A DNA stretch of 64,000 nucleotides from an uncultured Burkholderiales bacterium (GCA_943908475.1 CALTTG010000016.1:6582-70581), one strand, 5' to 3'. Positions 11,726 to 57,439 are shown, counted from the stretch's first letter. Translations and numbers: made by a program. The notes: generated by a model not told the origin, from the letters alone.

Positions 11726-13141
11726 ATGCCGATGACCGAGACCACATCGCCCATGGACCGTTTCATCCCTGACGCCTTGCGTCAGGACCCGGTCTCCCAT
11801 GCTCGGGCCAAAAATGCCGTGGGCTTTGCCCTGGTGGCCCTCCTCGCGGCGCCGCCATTCGCGGGCATCTACTGGTGGCAGCAACACCCAGGCGCCTCCC
11901 TCGGCATCCTGGGAGTGCTGGTGGCCAGCTTGGGTGCCGTGACCGTGATGAACCTGATGGGCAAGCTCTGGCTGACCAACCTGATGTCCATCACATCGCT
12001 GTTCCTGCTGTTCAACTATTTGGCCTGGAGCCTCGGGGGCGATCCGTCCCTGTCGGTCACGGCCTGGTACGCGATGGTGCCGGTGGTGGCCACCTTCTTG
12101 GGGGGCATGAAGGTCGGGCTGTGGTGGCTGGGCATCACCAGCGTGTCGGCGGTGGCCATGGCGGCGGCCTGGTACGCCGGCTGGAGCTTCCCGAAGAACC
12201 CGCTGGCGCAGCCGCAAATCATGTACACGATCAGCACACTGGGCTTCATCCCGTCCATCGGACTGCTGGCCGTTTTCTTTCAGATGTCAAAAAATCAGAG
12301 CGATGCAGCGCGGTCCGAACAGGTCAAGACGATCGAGTCCCTGATGGCGGAGGTCAGTCACCAAAGCCGCACCGTGGAGCAACTGGTCAGCGACATGGTC
12401 GGCGCCCTGTCTCAGCAAAGCGAGCAGGCGTCCGCCCTCCATGTCGCCTCAGATGCCAACCACCGCCTGGCCTCCAGCGTGGAGGCCGCGTCCACCACAC
12501 TGGCCCAAGAGGCCGACCTCGCCAAGGCACGCGCCGTGTCGGGCGCGTCGGTGGTCAATGGCGCCATCACGTCGGCGGAGTCGCTGGCCGAATCCATCGG
12601 GCAGGCAGACCAACTGGTCAAGACCCTTCAGTCGCGCTCACAGGGCATCTCTGAGATCGCCGACAAGATCAAAAGCCTGGCCTTCCAGACCAACATCTTG
12701 GCGCTCAATGCCACCATCGAGGCGGCTCATGCGGGCGCCCAGGGCAAGGGCTTTGCCGTGGTGGCCGACAACGTTCGAAAGCTGGCGGGCGAGGCGGGTG
12801 ATGCCGCCACCGCGATCAGCGAAGACCTGGGGGTGGTGCTGGCGCACATTTCACGCACCGGCCGCTTGCTGGACGACAGCCGTGAGACGGCCGAAATGGG
12901 CCGAGCCAGTGCCGCGCAGGCCAGAGACTCCTTGCAGGCCATCATCGATTCGGTCAACACCCTCAACACCGAAGCGGCCCGACTCCAGCAAACCAGCCAC
13001 GAGCAGTTGGGACACAACGAGCAGGTTCAACGACACGCCGCCGACATGGAAAGCGGCATCAGCCATGTCGTGCAAGGATCATCGTCGATCAAGCAGGCCA
13101 TGGACCAACTGAGCCGCCACCTGCAAACCGTGTCGATCTGA
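11726..13141 (+). CDS. Methyl-accepting chemotaxis protein (multi-TM N-terminus, no periplasmic ligand domain)
   Basis: 471 aa. MCP signalling domain with the highly conserved block [49 protein letters not shown]-terminal ~190 aa are hydrophobic helices. Confidence 0.75.
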
Positions 13142-13169: not shown

Positions 13170-13772
13170 TCAGCGACTGATGATGGCCACCAGCGTGCGC
13201 CAGATCAGCCGCACATCGAGCCACACCGAGGCCTGGTCCACATAGCGGGCCGCCAGGGCCAGCTTGTGCGGCAGCACCTCGTGGATGTAGGCGTGCTCGG
13301 GGTCGGCCGCACGGGCCAGCACGGTGCTTTCGTCGCGGTATTCGATCGAGGCGATGTCGGTGATGCCCGGGCGCACCGACAACACCTTGGCCTTGATCTC
13401 GGCCGGGTACACGGCCACATAGCGCGGCACCTCGGGGCGTGGGCCCACCAGGCTCATGTCACCCCACCATACGTCGAGCAGCTGCGGCAGCTCGTCGAGC
13501 TTGCTGGCGCGCAGGAAATGGCCCACGCGGGTGATGCGGGCATCGGCCCCCACGGTGATCTGCAGGCCCTGCCCCTCCGGCGCATGGCGCATGGTGCGGA
13601 ACTTGTGGATGTGAAATGGCACGCCATGCCGGCCCACACGCTCTTGGCGGAAGAACACCGGCCCGGGCGAATCAAGCTTCACGGCCAGCGCAATGAGCAG
13701 CAGCACCGGGGCCAGCGCCAGCAGGCCCAGTGAAGACATCATCCAATCGAACACGCGCTTGGCCATCAACAA
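13170..13772 (-). CDS. Small sugar transferase (bacterial sugar transferase domain only; PglC/WbaP-C-terminal-like undecaprenyl-phosphate hexosamine-1-phosphate transferase)
   Basis: 200 aa. Single N-terminal TM, then the conserved motifs [19 protein letters not shown] and [21 protein letters not shown]. Confidence 0.8.
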
Positions 13773-43570: not shown

Positions 43571-45166
43571 TCACCGACCGTTGCTGGCCGATTGCTTGAA
43601 CGCCAAGATGGCTTGATTGCGCAGGGCCGTCAGCTGCGTCAGGTGCTGCGCATCCACCTTCAACGAGTCGGCCACCAAGCGGTCGGCATAAATCAGGCCC
43701 ATGATGTGGGGCTTGCCTTGGCGCTGCATGATCAAGGGCAGCAGCAAAAAGGTCGGAGCGTCCACCTTTTGCCGGAACCACAACGGCAGACGGTCTCGAA
43801 CGGCCGGGGCGCTGGCATCGCGGATCAACAAGTCCGTGCCCTTGAGGCACACCGCTGAGAAAATGTGCGGCGAACCGCCGGACTCCAATGGCACCCCAAA
43901 CAGGCCTTTGACGGCCTCTCCGCCGTCACCCAAGGCCATGCGTCCCATCAGGGCATTGCCTCGGGGGTCGCGCAAGCAAAACACCACCCGGTGGCAGTCG
44001 AAGGCCCGCAGCACCGTTTCGAGAATCATGTGCAACACGTCGGGCAACTTGAAGTCGCCCACGAGGGTCGAGGCCACATCCTGAATGCCCGAGGCCAAGA
44101 TGCTGGCTGCGTCTTCCTCCCGAGCTTGGGCCTCGCCAAAGCCATCGCCCAAACCCAAGGCATCGGGGCTCACCGCCGGCGGGGCGTCATCCGCATGCGG
44201 CGCGTCCACGTAATAGGTGTCGACCAAGCGCTCTGAGGGCTCGCCACGGTCCACCTGGAATTCCAGCGCCTCCACCAGTTCGGTCAAGCGGGTTCGGGCG
44301 CGAAAAGCCGCCTGGCTGACCGTGTCGCGCCCCAACTCCAAAGCCGTGGCCGCCTGGGCTTCCAGGGCCTGCAATTGCACCCCCAACTCGGCAGGCTCCG
44401 TCAGCAACATCACGCGAGCCACGTCACACGAGAGCGTGGCCATCCACGACAGCCGGTCGGCCGGATCCTTGATCGCGCCTCGTGGCCAGGCCGTCTGAGG
44501 CGCACGCATGCCTTTGACGATTTCGGGCGGCAAGCCCCAGTCTTTGCCCACCGCCTGCCCCAGCTCGTCAAAGCTCAACCCGAGCACCGCATGAGAAACA
44601 TCTTCTTCCGGCGCGCTCTGACCTGGCGCACGGGCCTGATCGCGAATCTGCTGCGCATCCTCCGGGAGGTAGTACTCCACCAGCAAGCGCCCCAGGTTGC
44701 GAAACAGCGCCATCACGAAGGCCTCTTCAGACTGCCGCGGTGTGGTGCTCAACTCACTGGCGATGGTGCCGGCCATCACCGTCCGCAAGAACTCTTCCTT
44801 CAGCTGACGCGCGTGCTGCTTGTCCTCCATGTGCTCAACCAGCATCAGCGACAAGGCCACGTTGCGAATGCCGGCCAGCCCCACCAGCATCACGGCCCGC
44901 GACACCGTGCTGATCGGATCGACCCCGGCGCTGCGAAACCGCGCCGCGTTGACCACCCGCAGCAGCTTTTGGGTCAAGGCCACATCCTTGAGGATCTCCT
45001 CGCTCAGGGTGTGCAGGCTCTCGGTGTCCGACAACGACAAGCTCTGAATCCGGGTCATGGACGATGCCAGCGCAGGAAAGTCCGACTTCTGACGCATTCG
45101 GCGCAGGAGATATTCCACCGTCAGGGCCGGGTCTTCGGACTTCACAGAGGCGTGGGGGTCGGTCAT
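43571..45166 (-). CDS. HDOD-domain signalling protein with a C-terminal GAF-like domain
   Basis: N-terminal HDOD (LPALASSMTRIQSLSLSDTESLHTLSEEILKDVALTQKLLRVVNAARF). C-terminal ~170 aa GAF-like (FDCHRVVFCLRDPRGNALMGRMALG). Confidence 0.6.
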   Translation of the reverse strand: MTDPHASVKSEDPALTVEYLLRRMRQKSDFPALASSMTRIQSLSLSDTESLHTLSEEILKDVALTQKLLRVVNAARFRSAGVDPISTVSRAVMLVGLAGIRNVALSLMLVEHMEDKQHARQLKEEFLRTVMAGTIASELSTTPRQSEEAFVMALFRNLGRLLVEYYLPEDAQQIRDQARAPGQSAPEEDVSHAVLGLSFDELGQAVGKDWGLPPEIVKGMRAPQTAWPRGAIKDPADRLSWMATLSCDVARVMLLTEPAELGVQLQALEAQAATALELGRDTVSQAAFRARTRLTELVEALEFQVDRGEPSERLVDTYYVDAPHADDAPPAVSPDALGLGDGFGEAQAREEDAASILASGIQDVASTLVGDFKLPDVLHMILETVLRAFDCHRVVFCLRDPRGNALMGRMALGDGGEAVKGLFGVPLESGGSPHIFSAVCLKGTDLLIRDASAPAVRDRLPLWFRQKVDAPTFLLLPLIMQRQGKPHIMGLIYADRLVADSLKVDAQHLTQLTALRNQAILAFKQSASNGR

Positions 45167-45317
45167 GTCCGCATTTCACCAGGGACGCGGCAGGGGCCTT
45201 GCGAGGAAAAACACCCCAAAGCCCCCCGAAACACCATTCACGCATCTTTACGCAACACGAACATGGGCTTTACCCAGGCGGCGCACGATGACGTCACTGA
45301 ATCACGAGGAGCACACG

Positions 45318-45899
45318 ATGCCACGTTCACGCGCCCAAACACTGATGCCCCTGCGCACCGCACGATGGATGGCCGCCACCGTCCTGCTGGCCGGGGGCAT
45401 GCTGGCGGCGCTGTCTGGCGCCAACGCCTGGGCCGACCGAGGCCATGGCGGCAAGGGCGGCCCTGAGGCTTGCATGCACCAGGCGGGTCACCCGGGCGGC
45501 ATGCTCGGGGGCGGACGCATGATGAACCGCATGCTGGACGACATCAAAGCCACCGACGCACAACGCACCCAGATCCGCAGCATTCAGGACGCCGCACGTG
45601 CCGACCTGAAGAAACTGCACGACCAGCACGCCAGCTTCCATCAAGACCTGCAGAAGCTGCTGGCCGCCCCTGTGGTCGACGCAGCCGCCGTGGAGAAACA
45701 TCGCCAGCAGATGCTCGCGCACCACGATGCGGTGAGCAAACGCATGACGTCGGCCATGGTGGACACCAGCAACGTGCTGACCCCGGAACAACGCAGTGCC
45801 ATGGCCACGCACTGGCAAGAACGTGCCAAGGCACGTGCAGATCGACATGAGCGCCATGAGCGCCGCCAACATCATCATCACGACGCCCCCAAGGGCTGA
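45318..45899 (+). CDS. Periplasmic Spy/CpxP-family (LTxxQ-motif) stress protein
   Basis: Signal peptide MPRSRAQTLMPLRTARWMAATVLLAGGMLAALSGANAWA. LTxxQ-like repeats (KATDAQRTQI, LTPEQRSAM). His-rich C-terminus. Sits directly upstream of an OmpR/HK pair. Confidence 0.6.
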   Translation: MPRSRAQTLMPLRTARWMAATVLLAGGMLAALSGANAWADRGHGGKGGPEACMHQAGHPGGMLGGGRMMNRMLDDIKATDAQRTQIRSIQDAARADLKKLHDQHASFHQDLQKLLAAPVVDAAAVEKHRQQMLAHHDAVSKRMTSAMVDTSNVLTPEQRSAMATHWQERAKARADRHERHERRQHHHHDAPKG

Positions 45900-45913
45900 A
45901 AGAGGAGGCCACA

Positions 45914-46627
45914 ATGGTGGACATGAGCGAGCACATCTTGATGATCGACGACGACCTGCGGCTCAGCGCCATGGTCGGCGACTACCTCAAAAGCCATGGC
46001 TATCAGGTGTCGACGGCGCCCAGCCTGGGCGCTGGTCGGGAAATGCTGGCACGTCAGGCGTGTGACGCCCTCGTGCTGGACCTGATGCTGCCCGATGGCG
46101 ATGGCCTGGACCTCTGCAAAGAGTTGCGCGCCTCGCCACGCACCCGAGCGTTGCCACTGCTGATGCTCAGTGCACGAGGCGAGCCCACCGACCGCATCGT
46201 CGGCCTGGAAATCGGCGCCGACGACTACCTGCCCAAGCCTTTTGAGCCCCGCGAACTGCTGGCGCGGGTGCGGGCCTTGCTGCGCCGAACCAGTGCCGGA
46301 CAGGCCGAAGACGACGTCTGGCGGTTCGGTCGGCTGGAAATCGACAACGGCCTGCGGCAGGTGCGCCTGGACGGGCAACCGTGCGACCTGACGTCCTACC
46401 AGTACGACCTGATGACGGTGCTGGCAAGGCACCCAGGCCGGGTCCTCAGCCGCGACCAGATCATGGACTCCCTCAAAGGCCACCCCTTGGAAGCGTTTGA
46501 CCGCTCCATCGACGTGCACATCTCCCGCATCCGGGCGGCCATCGAAAACGACCCGAAAAACCCGCAGCGCATCCTCACTGTGCGGGGCGTGGGTTACGTG
46601 TTTGCGAAGAAGCAAGACGCTGAATGA
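45914..46627 (+). CDS. OmpR-family response regulator
   Basis: Receiver HILMIDDDLRL...LVLDLMLPDGDGLDLC, then a winged-helix domain (RLEIDNGLRQVRLDG...RVLSRDQIM). Confidence 0.85.
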   Translation: MVDMSEHILMIDDDLRLSAMVGDYLKSHGYQVSTAPSLGAGREMLARQACDALVLDLMLPDGDGLDLCKELRASPRTRALPLLMLSARGEPTDRIVGLEIGADDYLPKPFEPRELLARVRALLRRTSAGQAEDDVWRFGRLEIDNGLRQVRLDGQPCDLTSYQYDLMTVLARHPGRVLSRDQIMDSLKGHPLEAFDRSIDVHISRIRAAIENDPKNPQRILTVRGVGYVFAKKQDAE

Positions 46628-48075
46628 AGACCCTGGCGCTGAGGATTTACCTGGCCGTCGTGGCCGTGCTGCTGTTGTTCGCGCTGGTCACCGGGTGGCT
46701 GGCGCAGCGCAACCTCGAACGCGAGGTGCAGCACTACCAGGCTCGCAGCGCCAGCAACGAACGCGTGACGGCATGGGCCGAGCTGATTGAAAACAGTTTG
46801 CCCGTGGCGCAAATGCCCGAAGAGGCCCAGCGCGACGCCCTGCTCGACTGGTCACAACGCCTGCGGCTGCCCATGGCCCTGGACAACGCCGAGGGCGAAC
46901 GCATTGCCACCTCCCCCCTGCTGATCGAGCGACTGGCCCAATGGCCTGAGCTGGAAAAACGCATGCAAAGCGCTCGCCTCTCGGACGGACGGGTGCTGTG
47001 GGTGCTTCGCGGCCCGCCCCCCCGACTCAGCATGGGCGGCTTGATGGGGCCACGCCCCCCTTCCGAACTGCTGGCGGGCCGCGATGACGGCCCGCGCGAC
47101 CGTCCAGACGAGGGTGGACACCTGGGCCGTGTGCCGCCCCGGGAAGACCCCTGGCTGATGCCCCTGAGCGGTTTGCTCCCCCCAGGCTGGGCCGTGGGCG
47201 CCCCCGCTTTGTTGATCATGCTGATGATGGTGTTCTTGGCCGTGGCCTTGGTGGCCTGGCCCGTGGCCGATCGCCTGACCCGCCGACTCAAGGCGCTGAC
47301 GGCCGGCGTGGAGCGCTTCGGCAAGGGGCAACTCGGCCACCGCGTCGACGTCGAGGGCAAAGACGAAGTCGCCGAACTGGCCCGCAGCTTCAACCAAGCT
47401 GCCCAGCGCATTGAAGAGCTGGTGACCTCCCACCGCTCGCTGCTGGCCAATGCCAGCCACGAATTGCGCTCACCGTTGGCCCGCATGAAGATGGCGGTGT
47501 CGATGATGAGCGATGTGTCCGCCGAGCACGCGCATCGCCTGCGACAAGAGATCCACAAAGACATCCGCGAGCTCGATGAGCTGGTCGAGGAAGTGCTGCT
47601 GGCCAGTCGACTGGACGCCCGCCCCGAGATCGAGCGCCACCCGGTGGACCTCCTGGGCCTGCTGATCGAAGAGGCGCAACGCACCGGGGCCGAAGTCCAA
47701 GCCAGCCCCGAGGCCACCACCCTGGAGTTCCAGGCCGACGAACGACTCTTGCGCCGCGCCGTGCGAAACCTGCTGGAAAACGCGCGACGCTATGGGCATG
47801 CCGCCAACGAGAGTGCACAGGTCGACGCCACCCTGCAGATCGAGCCCCACCATGTGGCGTTTGTGATCGAAGACCGGGGCCCCGGCGTGCCCGACGACCA
47901 GCGCGAACGCATCTTCGAACCCTTCTACCGCATGCCCGGCCATGCCGAGCACGCGGGGGGCGTCGGCCTCGGCCTGAGCCTGGTCAGGCAGATCGCCGTC
48001 CGCCATGGCGGTGAGGTGCGCTGCGAAGCCCGTGAAGGGGGCGGCAGCCGGTTTGTGATCAGGGTGCCGCGTTGA
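46624..48075 (+). CDS. Sensor histidine kinase (two TM helices, HAMP, HisKA, HATPase_c), CpxA/EnvZ class
   Basis: H-box LLANASHELRSPLARMKMAV. N box NLLENARRYG. G boxes GPGVPDDQRERIFEPFYR and GGVGLGLSLVRQI. 4-nt overlap with the RR gene. Confidence 0.85.
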   Translation: MKTLALRIYLAVVAVLLLFALVTGWLAQRNLEREVQHYQARSASNERVTAWAELIENSLPVAQMPEEAQRDALLDWSQRLRLPMALDNAEGERIATSPLLIERLAQWPELEKRMQSARLSDGRVLWVLRGPPPRLSMGGLMGPRPPSELLAGRDDGPRDRPDEGGHLGRVPPREDPWLMPLSGLLPPGWAVGAPALLIMLMMVFLAVALVAWPVADRLTRRLKALTAGVERFGKGQLGHRVDVEGKDEVAELARSFNQAAQRIEELVTSHRSLLANASHELRSPLARMKMAVSMMSDVSAEHAHRLRQEIHKDIRELDELVEEVLLASRLDARPEIERHPVDLLGLLIEEAQRTGAEVQASPEATTLEFQADERLLRRAVRNLLENARRYGHAANESAQVDATLQIEPHHVAFVIEDRGPGVPDDQRERIFEPFYRMPGHAEHAGGVGLGLSLVRQIAVRHGGEVRCEAREGGGSRFVIRVPR

Positions 48076-48140: not shown

Positions 48141-49217
48141 TCAGTGCTCACGAGGGGTGACAGCTTTGCGCAGCAGATGATAGGCCAGCAGCCAAGGAGG
48201 CATCCGAAGCCAATGCCCCCTCAGGTACATGACCTGGGTTGCAAGCGAAAACCGAATGTCTTTTGCCTGCGATGGGTGAGCTCCTAAGACCCTGTCCAGC
48301 ATGGCGTGCAGGCACCACAACCCGACATCTGACACACGTACGGCTTGCCGAAGCTCTCTCAACAAAAGAGCAGACACCTGCACCTGCAACTGGCGGCTCA
48401 TCTGACGGAGTGAATGAAACAGAGGCCCTGCCAATTCAAGCTCGATCGCCCGGCAAATCAAATCACGGTCTGTGATTCCATGGCGGTCGCAAACGCCAAG
48501 CAACGCTGCCAAATCCACCAACCCCCTGAATCCCTGCTCAAAAGTCCCCTCATGCATCAAATGGGTCGCGCTGTGCAAGAGCATGTCCTCGGGGGCCAAG
48601 ACCCTGAGTCCCTCGAAATCAACCAAGGGGACGGATCGATCAATGAGTTTTTGAGAGCTCGGATGCAATCTCGCCGTGGATGGCAAGATTGCATGGTGCA
48701 CATCCACAACTGTTCCTCGCTGAATGTGGACCATGGGGGGCAACTCGTGCATCCAGGTCCGGTAGTACCGTTGGTCGTAGGCCGAGGTTGACGCACTGCG
48801 CCAACCCGCAACCATCAAGGCCGACTCGACCTCTGGCAATGCTTCGCGAGGAACCAGGATGTCAACGTCAGAAACCATGCGTCCCCGTCCGGCAAGGTTG
48901 TTTGCGCAGACATACGCGGCACCTTTGAGCAAGACAACAGGGATACGCAAGCTCGCCAATGCCCGACTGATTTCCTGAACTTCAAATGCGAGCTCTTCGT
49001 GCTGACGACGACAAACCAACTCCCCAGACCGCAAATGACGACGAGGCGCTTCCGGCACCGAGGACCAAAGGCCCCGCTCTCGCAGCAGCGAGGCAACGTG
49101 CGCGAGCAACTCAGACGCGCGACACGAACGAATCAAATCCTCCCAATCGCTGGGAGAAAAATTCGTCACCATCGACGGATCAACGAGAACTTGATTGATG
49201 AGATGCCTGCTGCTCAC
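48141..49217 (-). CDS. Nucleotidyltransferase-family protein (PF14907 'uncharacterised nucleotidyltransferase' type), member of the HprK-related-kinase-A cassette
   Basis: 358 aa. Pol-beta-like NTase region RGRMVSDVDILVPREALPEVESALMVAGW. Large helical C-terminal domain. 4-nt overlap with the kinase gene. Confidence 0.65.
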   Translation of the reverse strand: MSSRHLINQVLVDPSMVTNFSPSDWEDLIRSCRASELLAHVASLLRERGLWSSVPEAPRRHLRSGELVCRRQHEELAFEVQEISRALASLRIPVVLLKGAAYVCANNLAGRGRMVSDVDILVPREALPEVESALMVAGWRSASTSAYDQRYYRTWMHELPPMVHIQRGTVVDVHHAILPSTARLHPSSQKLIDRSVPLVDFEGLRVLAPEDMLLHSATHLMHEGTFEQGFRGLVDLAALLGVCDRHGITDRDLICRAIELELAGPLFHSLRQMSRQLQVQVSALLLRELRQAVRVSDVGLWCLHAMLDRVLGAHPSQAKDIRFSLATQVMYLRGHWLRMPPWLLAYHLLRKAVTPREH

Positions 49218-50140
49218 CTGTTGCCCCTGCTAAGAGCCAAGGCATCCATACAAACCATCGCGTCGTCCAAGTCACTGTAGACCAGCTGGTGCACGGCGCA
49301 TTGATCGACCACATCTGCGAGCACATGAAACCCATGGTGACCATGAATGTGTCGATTGAAACTGTTGCGCTGCAACTCCATCAAGCCAAGTGCGCGGCCC
49401 ATGGTCGACAAGGTCAATGGTGCACCCATTTCATAGCGAGGAAAAACAATCCAAGCAGGCAAAGCGCGCCTTTGCGCGTGTACGACACTGTCTGTCGATG
49501 CGCGCATGTGACAAACCGTGCCTTTGAGAGTGTCAAAAGCCACAGGCCCCATGACGGCTTCGGGCACACGCCGACGCATGACGTCAATCGATGCGTTCTT
49601 CAAGCTGATCGGTCGCGGAGACGGAATCAAGTCGCCAGACAAGGGATCCAAGAGCGCCATCTCATCAGAGAGCAAACGCCACCCGTGATGCATCAACGCA
49701 GAACAAAGTGTACTTTTACCCGAGCCTGGTGGCGCTGGAAGTATCAGCGCCCGACCATTGCTCTCAAGCACAGCAGAATGAATGGTGATCCATTCATGAC
49801 AATGGCTGCTGACACACCAATTCAGCCCCCACTCGAACAGAGCAAATGCCTCTCCAATTGCAAGCGGTGTGAATGGCCTGCGCTCGTCAACCTCAAAGAC
49901 GCAAAGAGGACGAAACAGCTTTCTGTGAGGCACCAGCTTGATTCTGAAGTCGGCGAATACACCCGTTTCCATCCAAAACTCGTGTTCGGCATACAACTTG
50001 TAGATGCCTTCCGCGACAACCTGAATTTCCGATTGCACATGGATCACCCATGGGGAAATTGACAAAAAGATGCCGGTTGAGGACGACAGACCGTCACGCA
50101 ACTCTTCCAACGAAACAGAGGCAATTCGTCGACGAATCAC
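49214..50140 (-). CDS. HPr kinase/phosphorylase-related P-loop protein (HprK-related kinase A type)
   Basis: 308 aa. C-terminal-domain-like P-loop ILPAPPGSGKSTLCSALMHHGWRLLSDEMALL matches the HprK C-terminal kinase fold, but the HprK N-terminal domain is absent. Confidence 0.7.
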   Translation of the reverse strand: MIRRRIASVSLEELRDGLSSSTGIFLSISPWVIHVQSEIQVVAEGIYKLYAEHEFWMETGVFADFRIKLVPHRKLFRPLCVFEVDERRPFTPLAIGEAFALFEWGLNWCVSSHCHEWITIHSAVLESNGRALILPAPPGSGKSTLCSALMHHGWRLLSDEMALLDPLSGDLIPSPRPISLKNASIDVMRRRVPEAVMGPVAFDTLKGTVCHMRASTDSVVHAQRRALPAWIVFPRYEMGAPLTLSTMGRALGLMELQRNSFNRHIHGHHGFHVLADVVDQCAVHQLVYSDLDDAMVCMDALALSRGNR

Positions 50141-50409
50141 GCTGTTTCAGACCTCACCACGCCCATGGCGACCAAAGACTGCAACAATGAGTCAATCAGT
50201 TCGTGGTCTTCGGGCTCGGGAAAATCGCCGATCAGGTGACGAGCCAACATGTGCAAAGATGCTTTTTTTTCGGCCTGCAGGAACTGAAGAACTTCAACTG
50301 CAACAGGCGTGACTTGATAAACAGCAGAATCCGCCGAGTCATGAACGACGCCACCGTCTGCCCAACACCGGAAGGTGAATCTGGGAGACCTCAAACTGAA
50401 CCAAACCAC
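50137..50409 (-). CDS. PqqD-family small protein (RRE-like peptide-binding chaperone)
   Basis: The ORF track gives 50137..50553 from an ATG, which would overlap the upstream gene by 140 nt. A GTG at 50409, 4 nt after the upstream stop and preceded by GAGG, gives a ~90-aa product VVWFSLRSPRFTFRCWADGGVVHDSADSAVYQVTPVAVEVLQFL..., the size and pattern of PqqD/RRE domains. Confidence 0.55.
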   Translation of the reverse strand: MVWFSLRSPRFTFRCWADGGVVHDSADSAVYQVTPVAVEVLQFLQAEKKASLHMLARHLIGDFPEPEDHELIDSLLQSLVAMGVVRSETA

Positions 50410-50413
50410 CGCC

Positions 50414-51079
50414 TCAGCAACCAGACGAAGTCCCTCCAGGCCCTCCGGTGAGGCAGGCGTCAAACGTAGCGCCACCCACACCGTACACTCGGTCAAAATA
50501 AGCCAGTGTTTTTGCCAAGTCCCAGGAAACCCCCGCCATCGGCTTCCACGCACCCTTATTTCTCCAAATCTCCAAGCATTGGGTTTTGGTGAGGATGCTG
50601 GAGCCAGGATAAACCTCAGCCGCCAGGAATGCCGCAGCGCAATAGACTGAAAGCTTCAACTGGCTCGAACTGGAGGTCGAAATGGTCCGGTTGATCACCG
50701 TTCGCAAGGTATCCGAGGTGCCTACACCACAGCTGGTGTAGCTGCTGAATCCACAATTGGAGTAGATCGAGTGATGCAGAAACCGTTTGGTTCCAACGGT
50801 CGTTTGACAACGGGAACGACACTCTGACAGCGGAAGATAGCTGCCGGTGGTGTTGCGACCAGGCGCGGTGCTCAACCTGTTGTTGATGAACGAAGCGAAT
50901 GAGGAGGGGCGCACCGTTGAGTTCGCAGAGGTGGTCGCCAACACCAAATCGGTCTTGAACGCTGCAACCACTGGCGCAGCGGACAGCCCAGCACGAATCA
51001 GGGCACGACGGGACACCTGTGCCGAGACGGGCTCAGGTGCTGGCACCGGGGAATCATCGTGCGAGTGAGGATCAGACAT
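50414..51079 (-). CDS. Tat-signal secreted Ser/Thr/Cys-rich protein of unknown function; first gene of the kinase/PqqD cassette
   Basis: Twin-arginine motif SRRALIRAGLSAAPVVAAF, then a ~180-aa S/T-rich region with 8 Cys, ending LTGGPGGTSSGC. No PEP-CTERM motif. Alternative GTG start at 51088. Lower-GC coding region. Confidence 0.45.
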   Translation of the reverse strand: MSDPHSHDDSPVPAPEPVSAQVSRRALIRAGLSAAPVVAAFKTDLVLATTSANSTVRPSSFASFINNRLSTAPGRNTTGSYLPLSECRSRCQTTVGTKRFLHHSIYSNCGFSSYTSCGVGTSDTLRTVINRTISTSSSSQLKLSVYCAAAFLAAEVYPGSSILTKTQCLEIWRNKGAWKPMAGVSWDLAKTLAYFDRVYGVGGATFDACLTGGPGGTSSGC

Positions 51080-51240
51080 CTGGAACACCTTGATTTAATT
51101 GCCCAATCAACAGGCACTGCCGGAATTTTACGTGGATGGCGCGATTAAGCAACAGATGCACAAGCGAAAGAGGGCAGTTGCATCCCTCGATTCGAAGGGG
51201 GGGCCATCAGCATGGTGAAAAAGATCGCCTCAACGGCTGA

Positions 51241-54018
51241 TCAGAGCCCCTTCAGCAACGCATCCACCTCAGCCTGCTTGCCGTAGCGACTGCCCAGTTG
51301 CCGCAACACCAGCAAAGACTCTTTGGCAGCCACTTTTTGGCCAGCTTGCAGCTGAAGCTTGGCCAAACTCAAACGGAATTCGGTGGCAGCGGGCTTCAAC
51401 TCGACGGCTTTTCGCTGCAGTTCGACGGCCTTGGCCCACTGCTGCTGACCGGCCAACACCATGGACCATGTGTCAAGAATCTCTGGGGTGTCAGGCGCAA
51501 GCGCGGCGGCTTTCTCCACATGACCCAACGCTTCTTTGCGCCCCATTTTTCCCAACACCCATGCCATGTTGTTCAAAATCAAAGGATTGCTGGGCTGCAA
51601 ACTCAACGCCACTTGATAGTGCTTCTCGGCCAAAGACAAGCGTCCTTCGATCATGGCTCGTTCGCCCATGTAAAACGCAAAACCCGCATCGCGTGGGTGT
51701 TTGAGCATCCAACCTGTGGCGAGCTTTTCCGCCTCCATCGAAGCGCCCATTACCAAATAGGTCGAATGGAGCTTGGTCGCAACGCCAGTGGCGGCGGGGG
51801 CTTTTTCCAACGCAGACGCATACGCTGATACAGCCGGCGAATACTGCTTGACATGAACATGGACGTCGCCCTCCATCACGAAGCCGATGGGGTCTTTTGG
51901 TCGCTGCCTTTGAATATCTTTGACGAGCGCAATGGCCTCCGGCACTGAATTGTTGCGCAGCGCCAGCTTGGCCAAACCATGCTGCGCTTCCAAGTGGTCA
52001 GGCTCAGCCTCTAGCGCTTTGCGCATCATCAGTGCAGCTTGAACCAAGTCATTGTTGGCGGCATGGATGCCTGCCATCCGCATGTAGGCCAGTCCGGACT
52101 GGGGCTGAACGCTCGCAAGCTTCCCGTAAGTACTCAGCGCCTGGTTCCTCTCTCCAGCTGCGGCCTGCGCTTGCCCCAAAGCCCCCAAAACCGCGACACT
52201 GCCAGGCAAGGCAGCGGCCGCATTCTGCGCGATGGTAAGTGCCTGTTTGGGCTCCTTGCCGTGCAGCAGAAATGCAATCAACATCAGTCTGGGCGCCTCA
52301 TCGTCAGGCGAAGCCTCAACCGCACGGCTCAGTAGGGCCCTTGTTTTGTCTCTGGCCACGCCCGAAGTGATCTGCAGTTCCGCCAGATACATCAGCGCAT
52401 TGACATGCTTGGGCTCATTTTCAAGAAAAGCCTCCACACGACGAACAGCGACGTCTTGCTTTTTCTGGGCAACATCAATCGCCGCAAGTGCCTTGACAGC
52501 TGGGAAAAACGCAGGGGTCGCCTTCAAAGCCGCCCCCAAAACCTCTTGAGCAGCTTGGATATTCCCTTTCAACAGCAGCACCTGACCGTGCAGCATGGCC
52601 GGGATTGGGTCTCCCGGTCGTTTGGCTGCCAAGCGCAACACCGCAGCCAGGGCTTTATCGAGCTCACGACGCTGTACCAAAGCGTTAACCAGCGCCATGT
52701 CCGCCACAACACCTTTGTCTTTGGTTGAAATGTCCTGCAGTTCTCCAAAGGCTTGTTCAGCACGCCCATCCATCAGTCGACTCAAAGCGAGAGAGGTCTT
52801 CTTGGAAGGGTCTACTGGATCCAGCCTCGAAGCCCTCTCGAAGTGCGTCTGAGCCAACGCCTGGTTGCCCAGGACCATGTAAACCTGCCCTGCAGCCGCC
52901 AGCATCTCGGCATCGTTGCTTTGTGCCAAGTCCGTCGGCAACGTCGACATCGCTTTTTCAGTTTGGCCGGTTTTCAGATAGCTCAAGACCAACATTCGCC
53001 GAGCTAAAGTTAGCTCAGGCGAAGCCCTCAACGCCTTCGCCAAGAAGGGCTGAGCCTGAATCAAGGCGTTGGCCTGATACTCGATTGCACCGGCCAACTC
53101 AAGTGCGAGGGCATTGTCAGGCGACACCTTCAGAACACGCTGCGCGGCCTCCCGCGCGGCACGCAAATCGCCTCTGGCCATCGCGACCTGCGCCTCGATG
53201 AAAGCCGTTGAGGGACGCTGAGCGGCCATCTTTTTGAGCTTATTCAGTGCATCAACGGCCTCATCAAACTTTCCTTGGGATAGAAGAACCCGGACGATGC
53301 TGTACTGAGCATCATGGAACGAAGGCCAATGTTCCAAGGCGGTTTGATACGCTTTGAGCGCAGCATCAGGCTGCTTTTGCCCATAGTAGAGCACGTCACC
53401 CTTCAGTTTGAGGGCGACAGCATGCCGAGGATCCAGTTTCAACACCGTCTCAAGGAGGCTCAGCGCATCACCATATCGCTTGCCGCCGGCCAGGAAACGC
53501 GCTTTTTCGACCAACGCAGGCACATGATCGGGCTGGACCTTCAGTGCGGCATCCAAAGTCTCCAAAGCTCGCGCGCTTTGCCCAAGCCCCATTCGGGCGG
53601 AGGCCAGCGACGTCAAAAGACTTGCCTGCGAAGCGGGCTCTTTCAGAACCGTTGTGCCGTAAGCGTCCTCCAGCTTTTTGAACTGCTGTTTGGTCAACAT
53701 GGCCTCAGCCAAGGCTGGCACCACGGCATCTTGCGTTTGACCACCGCTCAAGGCTTTTCGTAACTCACTTTCGGCGCCTTCCGCATCACCCGTCGCCAAG
53801 AGCGACTTGCCCAGCAACAAGCGAGCTTCCGAGTCATCGGGCTTTTGCTGCAATGCATTCTTCAGCTGAATGATGGCTGCTGTGTGGTCATTTTTGGCGA
53901 TGTAGTCCTTGGCGGACACCAAGAGCTCAGCCGGGTTGCTGCCCTTGCATGCAACCAAGCACGCACAAAAACATAGACTCAGGGACAAGTGCGAGAACGA
54001 ACGCTTCAATCGATTCAT
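51241..54018 (-). CDS. prsT: PEP-CTERM system TPR-repeat lipoprotein PrsT
   Basis: ~925 aa of consecutive TPR repeats. Lipoprotein signal MNRLKRSFSHLSLSLCFCACLVAC (alternative ATG at 54039 overlaps the prsR stop as TAATG). Downstream of prsK-prsR as in described PEP-CTERM loci. Confidence 0.8.
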   Translation of the reverse strand: MNRLKRSFSHLSLSLCFCACLVACKGSNPAELLVSAKDYIAKNDHTAAIIQLKNALQQKPDDSEARLLLGKSLLATGDAEGAESELRKALSGGQTQDAVVPALAEAMLTKQQFKKLEDAYGTTVLKEPASQASLLTSLASARMGLGQSARALETLDAALKVQPDHVPALVEKARFLAGGKRYGDALSLLETVLKLDPRHAVALKLKGDVLYYGQKQPDAALKAYQTALEHWPSFHDAQYSIVRVLLSQGKFDEAVDALNKLKKMAAQRPSTAFIEAQVAMARGDLRAAREAAQRVLKVSPDNALALELAGAIEYQANALIQAQPFLAKALRASPELTLARRMLVLSYLKTGQTEKAMSTLPTDLAQSNDAEMLAAAGQVYMVLGNQALAQTHFERASRLDPVDPSKKTSLALSRLMDGRAEQAFGELQDISTKDKGVVADMALVNALVQRRELDKALAAVLRLAAKRPGDPIPAMLHGQVLLLKGNIQAAQEVLGAALKATPAFFPAVKALAAIDVAQKKQDVAVRRVEAFLENEPKHVNALMYLAELQITSGVARDKTRALLSRAVEASPDDEAPRLMLIAFLLHGKEPKQALTIAQNAAAALPGSVAVLGALGQAQAAAGERNQALSTYGKLASVQPQSGLAYMRMAGIHAANNDLVQAALMMRKALEAEPDHLEAQHGLAKLALRNNSVPEAIALVKDIQRQRPKDPIGFVMEGDVHVHVKQYSPAVSAYASALEKAPAATGVATKLHSTYLVMGASMEAEKLATGWMLKHPRDAGFAFYMGERAMIEGRLSLAEKHYQVALSLQPSNPLILNNMAWVLGKMGRKEALGHVEKAAALAPDTPEILDTWSMVLAGQQQWAKAVELQRKAVELKPAATEFRLSLAKLQLQAGQKVAAKESLLVLRQLGSRYGKQAEVDALLKGL

Positions 54019-54038
54019 GTATTGCCCATTGGAAAACA

Positions 54039-55400
54039 TTACCTGAGCCCAAACCTGTGCATCAAATCATACAAAGTTGGACGACTGACACCCAAGAGTT
54101 CAGCCGCCTGGAGCACGTTACCATCAACCCTGGCCAGCGCTGAGAGAACAGCAGAGCGCTCTGCAGCCTCTCGAACGGTTCGCAAGTCCAATGAAGCCTC
54201 GGGCGCCCTCGCCTCGGCATCGGGCAAGCCAAGATCTTCTGGCTGTATGCGAGCACCGTCGGCCATGATGCACGCCCGTTTGATGCAGTTTTCAAGCTCT
54301 CGAATGTTGCCTGGCCACTGGTATTGCTCAATGCTGTGAACAGCCTCTGGCGACAAAGAAAGGGCACTCCTGCCCTGTTCGCCGACAAATCGCCTAACGA
54401 ATGCGTGTGCAATGAGTACCGCATCTCCCACTCGTTGACGCAATGGTGGAATGTCCACCACTATTTCAGCCAGCCTGTAATACAGATCTTCGCGAAATTG
54501 TCCGTTACCGATCAGCACCTTTAGATCTTGATGGGTCGCGCAGACGATTCGAACGTCAACTGGTATTTCTTGACGTCCGCCCACACGCTCGATGACTCGC
54601 TCTTGGAGGAATCTCAGCAGCTTGGATTGCAAAGCCACAGGAAGATCCCCAATTTCATCCAACATCAGGGTGCCACCATTGGCCAATTCAATTTTGCCCA
54701 GGGTTGTTTTCACCGCCCCAGTAAAGGCGCCCTTTTCGTGACCGAAAAGCTCTGTCTCGAGCAAACTTTCAGGAATGGCAGCGCAGTTAATGGCCACAAA
54801 CCTTCCTTCACGCCGAGCACTGGATTGGTGCAAACCTCTTGCCAATACTTCCTTGCCCGTACCACTTTCCCCCAACAACATTACTGTGGCAGTGGTGTTG
54901 GACACCTTCTCGATCAAGCGACAAACCCGAAGCATTTCAGGATCTCGCGACAAAAGTCCTTTCATCGCATCAGGCACCTGGGCGCTCTGCAATCTTCGAA
55001 TTTCACACTGCAACTCATGCAGCCTGAATGCACGCTCCAATGTGAGATTGAGCACCTCGGGCTCAAACGGCTTGGCGAGAAAGTCGTATGCACCCATTTC
55101 AATGGCTTTCATCGCATTGTCTTGGCCATTTTGTCCGGTCAACACAATGACTTTCGCCTCGGGCTGTGCAGCCAATATTTCACTCAGTAGCGCGAAGCCC
55201 TCGCTGACATCATCAGCATCAGGCGGCAAGCCCAGATCCATGGTCACAACCGATGGCGCGTACCGACGAACGAGCGTCATGGCCTCCTGTCGATCAAAAG
55301 CAGTGAAGGATTCCCAACGATCGACAGACCACTTGATCTGTTTTTGCAGAGCAGGATCATCCTCGACAATCAACAGGCACCCGCTTTTTTGAACGCTCAT
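54039..55400 (-). CDS. prsR: PEP-CTERM-box response regulator transcription factor PrsR (sigma-54-dependent, NtrC family)
   Basis: Receiver LLIVEDDPALQ...VVTMDLGLPPD. AAA+ sigma-54 activator domain LLGESGTGKEVLARGLH, GAFTGA, ESELFGHEKGAFTGA-type. C-terminal Fis-like HTH (LQAAELLGVSRPTLYDLMHRFGL). Confidence 0.85.
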   Translation of the reverse strand: MSVQKSGCLLIVEDDPALQKQIKWSVDRWESFTAFDRQEAMTLVRRYAPSVVTMDLGLPPDADDVSEGFALLSEILAAQPEAKVIVLTGQNGQDNAMKAIEMGAYDFLAKPFEPEVLNLTLERAFRLHELQCEIRRLQSAQVPDAMKGLLSRDPEMLRVCRLIEKVSNTTATVMLLGESGTGKEVLARGLHQSSARREGRFVAINCAAIPESLLETELFGHEKGAFTGAVKTTLGKIELANGGTLMLDEIGDLPVALQSKLLRFLQERVIERVGGRQEIPVDVRIVCATHQDLKVLIGNGQFREDLYYRLAEIVVDIPPLRQRVGDAVLIAHAFVRRFVGEQGRSALSLSPEAVHSIEQYQWPGNIRELENCIKRACIMADGARIQPEDLGLPDAEARAPEASLDLRTVREAAERSAVLSALARVDGNVLQAAELLGVSRPTLYDLMHRFGLR

Positions 55401-57439
55401 TCCTTCTCCCCGGACTCGAGCAGCGGGACGGCCACTGTGATCAGTGTTCCTCGCCCCTCTTGACTATCGACCTTCATTTGCCCACCAAGCTCGTGGATGT
55501 ATTGAGCACTTTCATAAGCGCCAATTCCCATCCCAGCGTCTTTGGTGCTGTGAAAGGGCCTGAACAAGCGCGATCGCACAAACTCTTCGCTCATCCCGCA
55601 CCCCTGATCAGCAACCTCTATGCATGCTTGACTTCCAAGCCGGTAGGTTCGAACACTGACAGCCCCTTGATTCGCTTCTGTCGCATCCAGCGCGTTTTGA
55701 ATGACATGCCCAATCACGCGGGAGAGTCGATCGCGATCTCCTCTGGCTGAAACGTTGGTGGAGATGTCCAAAGAAATCTTACGGCCCCGCTTTTCCGTGA
55801 GCAAGGCCCACTCTTGGGCGATCGACGATAAGTTGACCGCCGGCGAGGTGCCCGCCAACGCTGGAGCCCCTCCTTCCCTGAGTTGTAACATCAACTGCTT
55901 CATCCGCTCGAGCGAATGCTCGATGGTCATGATCATGTCGTCCTGAAATTCAGCGTTATCTTTGAGACGGCGAGCATTTTTCATCAACAAGGACAGCTGC
56001 GTCACTATGTTCTTGAGGTCATGCACCACGAAGGCAGACATTTTGTTAAACGAGTCAAATTTTCGCGACTCCATGAGCACTTCGGTGGCACGCATCTGCA
56101 GCAAAAAGCTGGCCGCCTGCGTCGATGCCGTCTTGAGCAAGTCTGTCACTTCCCAATTGCGGTCCAGCGCGGCCCTGGGGCGAGCCAGCACGACGAAGCC
56201 ACAGTCGTCACCCGCCAGACGCAAGGGAACCAGCAGCCAAGCATCAGACAACCTCATCAGCCAATCTGGAAGGTCGACATTGGGATAACGATCGGAGTGC
56301 GCTCGGTACTCATCGATGTCGATCACCCAGCCTGATCGGGCGACAAAGGCCATGAGTGACGAGCCCACGGGTTCCACTTCGCGGACCAAGGGCAAATTCC
56401 AGCGCGCCACCTGAACGAATTCAGCACGTTCTGAATGACGCATCCAAAGGCCGCCTGCAGGGCTCTCGACCATGCCTGCCAAACCCTGTATGACGTTTTG
56501 ATTGAGTTCGTCGGGATTGGAGTGCGATGCCAAGGCCCCAGTGAACTTCAGCCATTCTTCTCGATAATCATAGCGATAACGAAGAAAATGTTTGCCCGAC
56601 CATACTCTCAACCATGCGCGCCCAGACCCGGAAAAAGCCAACGTCATCAACAAGCCGCATGACAGAAAAACAAAACCAACCTGAAGCGCCCGCCCCCAAT
56701 CGCCACCAAAATAGCGAATGTAATACCCCAAAGCGGAGATGAACAACAAATATCCGCCTGCCAAACTCAGCGCAACAGAGTGAAATACCACCTGCCTCGA
56801 GAGGCGAACCTGCATGATCCAACGACGCTGCCGCCAACTCGACAAAATCAACAGAGGCACCATCAGTGCGTGAACAAAACCGCGCGCGGCAAGTACATCA
56901 CCATCTATCAGGCTCAGTATGGCAGCCTCTGAGAACAAATAGAAATCAAAGAGAAAAATCCCACAAAGACCCAAACATATGGGCTTGATACTCCACCGGG
57001 AGTCAGTCGGCAAATTTCTAAAAAGCTGTTCAGCCAAAACGAGCCCAAACACCGACAGCAGGGTGAACGCCAAATGGCTGCCAGAGAAGAATGCAAGCGA
57101 CACCAGCAACACAGCGGACCACATAGCCCCCGTGAGGAGAAGCGATTGCAAACGCTCCTCTCTTTTGGCATTCAGCAAGTACAAAAGCACGAAAAACCAA
57201 GCGCCATATCGCAGGGCATCCAGCCTGTGTTCGACTTCAGGCCAAGATACACTCAGCCATGCCAGCATCGGGCCACTCCAGGCCCACATGACGGAAATGG
57301 AGGCGGCGAGCAGAAGCAACTTTTCAGAGGGATCAGCGGAAATCCTCGCAAATCCCGACCTCACCCAGAACGCAGCCAAGATCAAGTGACTCAAACCAGC
57401 CAGCATCAACCCGATGAGCAGCATGGTTCCAACAGTCAT
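55397..57439 (-). CDS. prsK: PEP-CTERM/XrtA-system sensor histidine kinase PrsK
   Basis: 680 aa. About 10 N-terminal TM helices, a GAF-like domain, HisKA (SAFVVHDLKNIVTQLSLL) and HATPase (GCGMSEEFVRSRLFRPFHSTK...GMGIGAYE). 4-nt overlap with prsR. Confidence 0.8.
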   Translation of the reverse strand: MTVGTMLLIGLMLAGLSHLILAAFWVRSGFARISADPSEKLLLLAASISVMWAWSGPMLAWLSVSWPEVEHRLDALRYGAWFFVLLYLLNAKREERLQSLLLTGAMWSAVLLVSLAFFSGSHLAFTLLSVFGLVLAEQLFRNLPTDSRWSIKPICLGLCGIFLFDFYLFSEAAILSLIDGDVLAARGFVHALMVPLLILSSWRQRRWIMQVRLSRQVVFHSVALSLAGGYLLFISALGYYIRYFGGDWGRALQVGFVFLSCGLLMTLAFSGSGRAWLRVWSGKHFLRYRYDYREEWLKFTGALASHSNPDELNQNVIQGLAGMVESPAGGLWMRHSERAEFVQVARWNLPLVREVEPVGSSLMAFVARSGWVIDIDEYRAHSDRYPNVDLPDWLMRLSDAWLLVPLRLAGDDCGFVVLARPRAALDRNWEVTDLLKTASTQAASFLLQMRATEVLMESRKFDSFNKMSAFVVHDLKNIVTQLSLLMKNARRLKDNAEFQDDMIMTIEHSLERMKQLMLQLREGGAPALAGTSPAVNLSSIAQEWALLTEKRGRKISLDISTNVSARGDRDRLSRVIGHVIQNALDATEANQGAVSVRTYRLGSQACIEVADQGCGMSEEFVRSRLFRPFHSTKDAGMGIGAYESAQYIHELGGQMKVDSQEGRGTLITVAVPLLESGEKE

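Follow-up and report, generated by a model that had tools for sequence, protein, structure and literature searches.

Four intact genes lie on the minus strand directly downstream of the regulators prsK, prsR and prsT in the window analysed here, a 64,000-nucleotide stretch of DNA from an uncultured Burkholderiales bacterium (GCA_943908475.1 CALTTG010000016.1:6582-70581). In the order of transcription they encode a protein with a Tat-type signal, here called X (50414-51079), a PqqD-like protein (50137-50409), HprK-related kinase A (49214-50140) and a PF14907 nucleotidyltransferase-fold protein (NTase, 48141-49217). The NTase and kinase genes overlap by 4 nt, as do the kinase gene and the PqqD-like gene (stop at 50137; GTGA). 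The PqqD-like gene most likely starts at GTG 50409, 4 nt after the X stop at 50414; this start was chosen from the reading frame and the homolog N-termini, whereas the longest ORF would start at 50553 and would overlap X by 140 nt. X most likely starts at ATG 51079 (221 aa); this ATG is preceded by AAGGTG, and the database copy of the protein (P0001) is 221 aa long. The longest ORF of X, which was the one taken in the initial annotation, starts at GTG 51088 (224 aa), and residue numbers in this work refer to the 224-aa frame. The upstream context genes on the same strand are prsT (51241-54039), prsR (54039-55400) and prsK (55397-57439), the PEP-CTERM/XrtA regulators, whose products matched TIGR02917 (711.7 bits), TIGR02915 (713.7 bits) and TIGR02916 (751.6 bits), all far above cutoff. 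The GC content falls from about 0.65 to 0.53-0.59 over 48-61 kb, and the cassette sits at the boundary of this lower-GC island.

The enzyme assignments made in the initial annotation were confirmed by profile searches. The kinase scored 349.2 bits with TIGR04352 (cutoff 200), covering 280 of 280 model positions. Its Walker A motif PAPPGSGKST lies at 49709-49738 and the LSDE motif is at residues 157-160; H115, H121, G139, G141, K142, S143, T144, D159 and E160 are invariant. The NTase matched PF14907 with E = 3e-51, and its G112-R113 ... D117-x-D119 ... E131 motif is intact (the DVD codons are at 48861-48869), these residues being at least 95% conserved in 78 orthologs. The PqqD-like protein of the window is a divergent member of its family: it reached only 18.3 bits with TIGR04353 (cutoff 35), but 36 of 36 syntenic orthologs hit that model at E <= 0.01 (best E = 1e-17), and 10 of 36 hit PF05402. 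The three enzymes correspond to the "HPr-rel-A system" of the databases, which is catalogued but uncharacterised; in the literature searched, no paper mentions TIGR04352, TIGR04353 or HprK-related kinase.

To test whether X belongs to this system, as the initial annotation had proposed, loci related to the cassette were retrieved through the kinase and searched for X homologs. A single-sequence phmmer search found X in 28 loci, and an iterated profile found exactly one copy per locus, on the same strand and immediately upstream of the PqqD gene, in 79 of 79 evaluable loci. In the reverse direction, all six look-ups starting from X found the trio downstream. The NTase gene was found in 77 of the 83 related loci; five of the six loci without it are short contigs that end at or just after the kinase gene, and in the sixth (L008) the hit fell outside the tally window. 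Only the 80 best kinase loci (42-63% identity) were examined in this way, and more distant cassettes were sampled by just two plasmids: the Vibrio cassette (36% kinase identity) has a clear X homolog (E = 1e-12), whereas the Sphingomonas one (31%) has a 161-aa protein with a Tat-like signal whose mature part does not align. These results strongly support X as a fourth member of the cassette. The databases do not treat it as part of the system: it matches no Pfam or NCBIfam model and is annotated by NCBI as a hypothetical protein.

X consists of three parts. The twin-arginine signal peptide (50936-51079), read from the sequence, comprises an n-region, S-R-R-A-L-I-R (Arg27/Arg28 at 51005-51010), the h-region AGLSAAPVVAAF, a basic residue in the c-region, and V-L-A. 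The RR pair is invariant in 106 homologs and in alignments A2, A3 and A4; of 81 family members, 77 fit x-RR-x-hydrophobic, 44 fit the strict consensus and 68 have a basic c-region residue, although no Tat-signal model appeared in the NCBIfam scan at E <= 5. The signal is followed by an X-specific linker with the motif P-S-S-F-A-S (50891-50908), for which the family consensus is C-x-S/T-P-S-G-F-x-S-G-N-x-S. Ser62 (50903-50905) and Ser66 (50891-50893) of this linker are invariant in 34 diverse members and at least 90% conserved in 106, and an S-x-x-x-S motif is present in 74 of 81; they are the candidate modification sites. The segment has a lower pLDDT (about 65) than the folded domain. The third part is a confidently modelled domain of roughly 125-130 residues (pLDDT above 90 over residues 80-208 in the family member P0130), for which no Pfam or NCBIfam model and no PDB fold match was found. 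This downstream domain also occurs alone in large surface-type proteins, and these large multidomain proteins matched from profile position ~81-85 onward, not in the signal or linker region. The X of the window lacks two family hallmarks, the first Cys and PGYWK, and it models poorly (pLDDT 59.8).

The initial annotation had emphasised the richness of X in Ser, Thr and Cys. These residues indeed make up 27.7% of X (31.8% of the mature part), against 9-14% in neighbouring proteins, but the family median is only 20.8%, and the Ser/Thr/Cys-rich C-terminal tail (TSSGC) is limited to the closest clade. The conserved candidate sites are instead the two serines just after the signal peptide.

The initial annotation had also argued for a link to the exosortase/EPS system from the position of the cassette next to prsKRT. 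About half of the related cassettes are not physically next to these genes, and in 38 of 83 loci no prs or eps gene lies within 10 kb. However, a functional link is supported by a shared cis-regulatory element. In other genomes the operon carries TGTCG-N7-TTACA followed, after about 60-120 nt, by a -24/-12 sigma-54 promoter, and in the same genomes this element precedes genes with PEP-CTERM tails. In total 82 strict boxes were found against 3.6 expected; box plus sigma-54 site precedes X in 39 loci and precedes ORFs with PEP-CTERM tails 21 times. A sigma-54 site lies upstream of X in 27 of 83 loci against about 4 expected (P = 7e-15). This matches the two-motif element described by Haft 2006 (PMC1569441), and pepA has been shown to depend on RpoN (PMC9850573). 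These observations suggest that in related genomes the operon belongs to the PrsK/PrsR regulon. X differs from the PEP-CTERM proteins in having no sorting tail (it ends in GGPGGTSSGC) and in being followed by three modification genes; no ORF in the window matched the tail pattern.

In the window itself only a degenerate remnant of the element is left between prsT and X (51148-51235, minus strand). In an alignment with the closest loci, 51214-51235 CCGTTGAGGCGATCTTTTTCACC lines up with the TGTCG-N7-TTGACA box, and 51148-51163 TTGTGCATCTGTTGCT lines up with the sigma-54 site TGGTGCGAATCTTGCG, so that the -24 GG reads TG here. No sigma-54 match with 2 or fewer mismatches was found in 51089-51240, and no terminator-like site was found between prsT and X. 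Expression in this genome probably depends on read-through from prsT.

Taking these observations together, the explanation that we consider best, although about as likely as not and without biochemical evidence of any kind, is that X is the substrate of the other three proteins. X would be made as a pre-protein with a twin-arginine signal, and the small PqqD-family protein would bind its N-terminal region in the cytoplasm, that is, the unusually conserved signal peptide and/or the linker that follows it. The chaperone would present X to the P-loop kinase, which would phosphorylate a conserved linker serine (Ser62 and/or Ser66), and the PF14907 enzyme would add a further group, a sugar or a nucleotide, to that phosphate. 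The modified, folded protein would then leave through the Tat pathway and act outside the cytoplasm in the PEP-CTERM/exopolysaccharide matrix system. Read directly from the sequence, the three enzymes show no N-terminal hydrophobic signal-like stretch and two of them have intact NTP-binding-type motifs (Walker A; G-x-D-x-D), whereas X has an invariant RR signal. The enzymes can therefore act on X only before export, and Tat is the route that carries folded proteins. That X is the substrate, the modification site and the chemistry are all inferred.

A close precedent is the tailoring set of lasso peptides, in which a PqqD RRE (B1), an HprK-like kinase (PadeK, ThcoK, PsmK) and the uncharacterised NTase-family protein PsmN are encoded together. 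In that system the kinase phosphorylates a serine of the ribosomal precursor before maturation, and PsmN, whose membership of PF14907 is not established here, is needed to add one or two hexoses to the phospho-serine (PMC6993621, PMC9266682). In lasso systems the phosphorylated serine is C-terminal, whereas the C-terminus of X is not conserved and its conserved serines are near the N-terminus of the mature protein. The kinase motif reads D-E (D159, E160) rather than the D-D of the His-Lys-Asp-Asp motif of lasso kinases, no ABC exporter is present, and the operon has PEP-CTERM-type sigma-54 control in related genomes. In bufferins, a small protein that folds (BufA) carries a general-export signal peptide, is modified in the cytoplasm by the MNIO enzyme BufB with the help of the RRE-type partner BufC, and is then exported and cleaved by signal peptidase (PMC11626156). 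Bufferins, however, use a Sec signal, their chemistry is the conversion of Cys to thiooxazole by an iron enzyme, their function is copper binding, and no kinase or NTase is involved. The role proposed for the PqqD-like protein would resemble that of Tat proofreading chaperones (TorD, DmsD, NapD), small dedicated cytoplasmic proteins that are encoded with their Tat substrate and appear to bind the twin-arginine signal peptide, delaying export until maturation is complete; their folds are unrelated, they seem to serve cofactor insertion into redox enzymes, and no binding data exist for this cassette. An HprK-like P-loop protein is paired with a PqqD-like protein also in the equally uncharacterised SynChlorMet (SCM) cassettes (ScmC and ScmD). 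The kinase described here weakly hit TIGR04249 (E = 5e-6), its relatives carry Pfam PF27840 "ScmC", and one PqqD ortholog hit ScmD. SCM cassettes probably also contain radical-SAM/SPASM enzymes and a short precursor (Haft and Basu 2011), and nothing annotated as such flanks the cassette in the window.

It is possible, though less likely, that X is an exported partner or effector rather than the substrate, and that the three enzymes modify a different target such as an unannotated short peptide, PEP-CTERM proteins, or a non-protein molecule such as a lipid-linked sugar. PqqD-family RREs typically bind short leader peptides, whereas X is a protein of about 220 aa (about 200-250 aa in the family) with a well-folded domain, and the operon is co-regulated with PEP-CTERM genes in other genomes. 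On the other hand, clustering of the cassette neighbours showed no other conserved ORF travelling with the cassette, although ORFs shorter than 30 aa were not screened. X and PqqD are separated by only a few bases in the window (4 nt) and in the called genes of three related loci (L003, L088 and L090), which leaves no room for a peptide gene between them. Moreover, the region that matches only in cassette-linked X, and not in the multidomain proteins, is its N-terminal segment, and PEP-CTERM genes are encoded elsewhere, often far away.

It appears unlikely that in this particular genome the cassette is decaying or silent, a relic at the edge of the lower-GC EPS island with no current function. 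The PEP-CTERM-type box and the -24 GG of the sigma-54 promoter are lost, X and PqqD are the most divergent members of their families, and the cassette sits at the island boundary. In contrast, all four ORFs are intact and keep their 4-nt couplings, all invariant catalytic residues are retained, no terminator separates prsT from X, and the closest relatives (loci L001-L003) share the derived X sequence and still keep a box or promoter.

A lasso-peptide or other RiPP tailoring module that has lost, or is separated from, its core biosynthetic genes is very improbable, even though the trio is the known set of lasso accessory genes and 4 of 36 PqqD orthologs also weakly hit a lasso PqqD model. No lasso-core family (Asn-synthetase-like cyclase or transglutaminase-like B2 leader protease) appeared among the ten recurrent neighbour clusters annotated from the 83 loci or among the genes flanking the cassette in the window. 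The kinase is a distinct equivalog family with at least 7,629 clusters at 90% identity, and the constant partner is a Tat protein of about 220 aa. Although an RRE protein is encoded with the modifying enzymes, as in RiPP pathways, the only conserved partner is not a short precursor peptide with a leader and a core, and no cassette-linked protease is universal, although peptidases are adjacent in some loci. That the kinase-like protein is an ordinary HPr kinase/phosphorylase of carbon catabolite control with unrelated neighbours can be practically dismissed, since the weak hit to TIGR00679 across the P-loop region (E = 0.003) reached only 16.8 bits against a cutoff of 240, no solved structure is related by sequence, and the four-gene synteny is fixed.

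What is new here, relative to the catalogued three-enzyme system, is the constant presence of X in the evaluable loci and the regulatory element shared with PEP-CTERM genes in other genomes. A more far-reaching interpretation, which is not excluded but which we regard as unlikely, is that the cassette defines a new class of protein maturation. In this view a RiPP-type recognition protein would have been recruited as a proofreading chaperone that binds the signal peptide of a Tat substrate and, while the pre-protein is held, a kinase and a PF14907 enzyme would build a phosphodiester-linked sugar or nucleotide on invariant serines next to the cleavage site. The exported phospho-modified protein would serve the exosortase/exopolysaccharide matrix, for example as an anchor or primer, and this would also assign a first general function to PF14907 and to HprK-related kinase A.

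Seven co-directional genes run on the minus strand of the window from 57439 down to 48141. The three upstream genes, prsK (55397-57439), prsR (54039-55400) and prsT (51241-54039), matched TIGR02916, TIGR02915 and TIGR02917 with 751.6, 713.7 and 711.7 bits, respectively. They are followed by gene X (50414-51079/51088), which had no Pfam or NCBIfam match, a PqqD-like gene (50137-50409; TIGR04353, 18.3 bits against a cutoff of 35), the gene of HprK-related kinase A (49214-50140; TIGR04352, 349.2 bits against a cutoff of 200) and a nucleotidyltransferase (NTase) gene (48141-49217; PF14907, E = 3e-51). The kinase and PqqD genes, as well as the NTase and kinase genes, overlap by 4 nt, and the GTG start of the PqqD-like gene at 50409 lies 4 nt after the stop codon of X. 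These data confirm the initial annotation, which had described a tightly coupled four-gene cassette directly downstream of the PEP-CTERM regulators.

Upstream of prsK there are XrtA-system genes: a TIGR03013 glycosyltransferase and the exosortase A-associated decarboxylase and acyl-CoA ligase. A 665-aa polytopic membrane protein (58925-60922, minus strand), encoded between epsB2 and the decarboxylase, had no Pfam or NCBIfam hit, yet it is conserved upstream of epsB2 in at least 13 related loci, and it may resemble an O-antigen-ligase-type protein. A second, weaker Bac_transf/EpsB2-like match (about 13170-13772, minus strand; E = 2e-35 to the window's EpsB2) lies far from the island. The GC content is 0.53-0.59 from 48 to 61 kb and about 0.65 elsewhere, thus the cassette forms the edge of the lower-GC block. 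Directly beyond the island lies a core-genome block of high GC (43571-48075), which encodes an HDOD-domain protein, a CpxP/Spy-like LTXXQ protein and an OmpR-type response regulator with its sensor kinase. The sensor gene is convergent with the NTase gene and ends at 48075.

The three genes downstream of X represent a catalogued but unstudied system. NCBIfam names the kinase "HprK-related kinase A" and the small protein "HPr-rel-A system PqqD family peptide chaperone", and the same names are used in the NCBI annotation of a Sphingomonas plasmid. The kinase family is large: at least 7,629 clusters at 90% identity matched, and more than 510 places in species-representative genomes encode a relative. 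In the literature that could be searched, no paper mentioning these models or names was found, nothing relevant was found on PF14907 or on PqqD combined with HPr kinase and exosortase, and papers on floc formation do not mention these genes. The PqqD copy of the window is divergent, but all 36 syntenic orthologs hit TIGR04353 (best E = 1e-17), and 10 hit PF05402. The catalytic motifs are intact, with the Walker A sequence PAPPGSGKST and invariant H115, H121, K142, D159 and E160 in the kinase, and G112-R113, D117-x-D119 and E131, each at least 95% conserved in 78 orthologs, in the NTase. PDB sequence searches with the kinase profile and with the NTase returned only P-loop noise or no hit, thus neither enzyme has a solved relative detectable by sequence.

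A word-indexed search with X alone found only 9 proteins, which made X look rare. The 80 genome loci retrieved through the kinase were then examined. Single-sequence phmmer detected an X homolog directly upstream of the PqqD gene in 28 loci, whereas an iterated profile found exactly one per locus, always on the same strand and immediately upstream of PqqD, in every locus that has sequence there (79 of 79). The one locus without a hit (L043) is cut off at the PqqD gene. In the reverse direction, six different X-type proteins were each followed by a small ORF, a PF27840 (ScmC-type) kinase and a PF14907 gene. The pattern is kept in two far more distant cassettes. A Vibrio alfacsensis plasmid (kinase 36% identical) encodes an upstream hypothetical protein with SRRRF, CSITSCMSGNAS and PDYW (profile E = 1e-12), and a Sphingomonas plasmid (31% identical) encodes a 161-aa hypothetical protein with a Tat-like signal (TSRRMLM...ALAQ), although the mature part of the latter does not align. 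Every named member that we saw is called "hypothetical protein".

Alignments of the family show that X consists of three parts. The first is a twin-arginine signal, in which RR is invariant and 77 of 81 members fit x-RR-x-hydrophobic. The h/c region is unusually conserved (T-L-A-S-R-P-V-L-G/A), and 68 of 81 members have a basic c-region residue. The second part is a linker of about 25-30 residues with the consensus C-x-S/T-P-S-G-F-x-S-G-N-x-S. Ser62 and Ser66 (window numbering) in this linker are invariant in 34 diverse sequences and at least 90% conserved in 106, and the segment has only moderate model confidence (about 65). The Cys is not in a lipobox position, which argues against a lipoprotein signal, and a sulfatase-like C-x-P-x-R motif could be rejected because the spacing differs and there is no Arg. 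The third part is a folded domain of roughly 125-130 residues (C-S/T-P-G-Y/F-W-K ... W-P ... F ... H-x-V-A-A-L-L-N-A ...), for which AlphaFold predicts pLDDT above 90 over residues 80-208 in the typical member P0130.

The folded domain of X, which in the window corresponds to the C-terminal two-thirds of the protein (50414-50830), is a widespread extracellular domain (C-S/T-P-G-F/Y-W-K ... VAALLNA ... CPL) with no PDB fold match, and Pfam and NCBIfam scans of X and of 34 family members gave nothing meaningful. An exhaustive profile search found 7,508 representatives, 4,294 of them at E <= 1e-10. About 200-aa X-type proteins matched from the signal onward, whereas large proteins matched only in the folded domain, sometimes in tandem, with six copies in the protein P0245 and two in each of P0259, P0306 and P0372. 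In those large proteins the domain sits beside SdrD_B, DUF11, DUF7507, SpaA-like, DUF4215 and Laminin_G_3 domains, which is a cell-surface type of architecture. In these hits, therefore, the signal plus Ser-linker appears only in the ~200-aa X-type proteins, the kind found next to the cassette. The alignments also revealed two C-terminal subtypes of X: the longer one ends W..G.Y.PTAGV.W...YL..T, and the shorter one ends GYT..E.I.LF...LN.R.CPL, like the domain copies in the large surface proteins.

The X protein of the window is a derived member of the family. It lacks the first Cys and PGYWK, it models poorly (pLDDT 59.8), and it carries an extra S/T/C-rich tail found only in its closest clade. 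Its S+T+C content of 27.7%, one of the features by which the initial annotation had characterized the protein, is at the top of the family range, whose median is 20.8%. The C-terminal TSSGC tail, considered as the phosphorylation site by analogy with lasso peptides, was rejected because it is not conserved.

Physical linkage of the cassette to the PEP-CTERM system is only partial. Of 83 related loci, 45 have prsK, prsR, prsT or epsB2 within 10 kb, in varying orders and orientations, whereas in others the cassette sits between hemA-prfA-prmC and grx4 or next to metK-ahcY-metF. In Nitrosomonadales-type genomes (L018, L024, L086 and L090; Sulfurirhabdus, Sulfuriferula, Thiobacillus) it is inserted between hemA-prfA-prmC and grx4, far from any EPS genes, and still carries the regulatory box described below and/or the sigma-54 promoter. 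A trypsin-like (HtrA/MarP-type) serine protease gene lies next to the cassette in about 16 loci (11980-12774 in locus L004), and a Peptidase_M10-like gene follows the NTase in loci L086 (9080-9970) and L087. Either could be a processing enzyme for X, but neither is universal.

The regulatory evidence for the link is stronger. A sigma-54 -24/-12 site (at least 9 of 11 matches) was found within 400 nt upstream of the codons for the X twin-arginine motif in 27 of 83 loci, whereas about 4.3 would be expected by chance (P = 7e-15). Alignment of those regions exposed a conserved box, TGTCG-N7-T(T/G)ACA, located 63-120 nt (median 85) upstream of the -24 element. Over 2.9 Mb (both strands), 82 strict boxes occur where 3.6 are expected. 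In 39 loci a box plus sigma-54 site precedes X, 21 boxes lie before ORFs ending in textbook PEP-CTERM tails (VPEPxSLALLGLGLxGL...RRR), 7 lie before other ORFs, and 15 have no sigma-54 site. In front of the 21 ORFs with PEP-CTERM tails, found in loci L004-L083, the box lies 40-100 nt upstream of a TGGCAC-N5-TTGCT promoter, and could serve as a simple genomic marker of the PrsR regulon. These observations match the two-motif element that Haft et al. 2006 described upstream of proteobacterial PEP-CTERM genes and attributed to PrsR and sigma-54 (PMC1569441), and also fit the experimentally RpoN-dependent pepA gene (PMC9850573). The X operon is therefore, in many genomes, a non-PEP-CTERM member of the PEP-CTERM regulon.

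In the window, however, the element is degenerate. The prsT-X spacer (51148-51235, minus strand) holds a decayed copy of the enhancer box and sigma-54 promoter, both of which are intact in the closest relatives (loci L001-L007). The box position reads CCGTTGAGGCGATCTTTTTCACC, the -24 GG is TG, and no sigma-54 match with 2 or fewer mismatches was found in the spacer. No terminator-like site separates prsT from X, so read-through from prsT is the simplest route to expression.

Taking into account that the unit is fixed, that its first product carries a Tat-type signal and an X-specific conserved N-terminal segment, and that the three downstream products have no N-terminal hydrophobic signal-like stretch while two of them have intact nucleotide-binding-type motifs, a mechanism can be proposed. 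HprK-like kinases in lasso clusters phosphorylate a serine of the linear precursor, and the uncharacterized NTase-family protein PsmN, whose DxD motif is essential, is required to add hexose to that phospho-serine. PqqD-type proteins are peptide-binding recognition elements, and bufferins show that a small protein that folds and carries an export signal can be modified in the cytoplasm with an RRE partner before export. By inference, the PqqD-like protein binds the signal or linker region of pre-X, the kinase phosphorylates Ser62 and/or Ser66, the PF14907 enzyme elaborates the phosphate, and Tat exports the folded, modified protein to act in the matrix system. The main logical support is the fit with Tat: enzymes whose motifs indicate NTP use, and which lack export signals, can reach X only before export, and Tat is the route for proteins that fold or mature in the cytoplasm. 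We consider this whole chain about as likely as not.

The alternative that X is merely a partner and the true substrate lies elsewhere is possible but less likely, as no other conserved ORF of at least 30 aa was found and the Ser-linker and signal match only in the ~200-aa X-type proteins. That the window copy is decaying appears unlikely, because the ORFs and motifs are intact and relatives share the derived X. It is very doubtful that the cassette is a stray lasso or RiPP tailoring module, since no cyclase or protease was found among the ten recurrent neighbor clusters annotated. A genuine HprK/P can practically be dismissed, with 16.8 bits against a cutoff of 240.

The trio of genes is already catalogued, so the cassette itself is not a discovery. 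As far as the libraries and literature searched show, the Tat-signal protein as a constant fourth member, its uncatalogued extracellular domain and the operon's possession of the PEP-CTERM regulatory element are new. Mechanistically, it would be RRE-guided tailoring applied to a folded Tat substrate, although the chemistry and the substrate relationship are inferred.

The kinase family, for which no function is known, occurs in hundreds of species of Burkholderiales, Nitrosomonadales, Rhodocyclales and some Gammaproteobacteria, groups that include floc formers and sulfur and nitrogen cyclers. Recognizing the Tat-signal protein as the constant fourth gene gives a concrete substrate candidate, the two conserved serines give specific candidate sites, and the shared regulatory element gives a regulon in which to look for phenotypes (PrsK/PrsR, sigma-54, floc and biofilm formation). 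If the mechanism is right, RRE-guided modification would extend from peptides to a folded, Tat-exported protein, and it would also assign chemistry to two large uncharacterized enzyme families.
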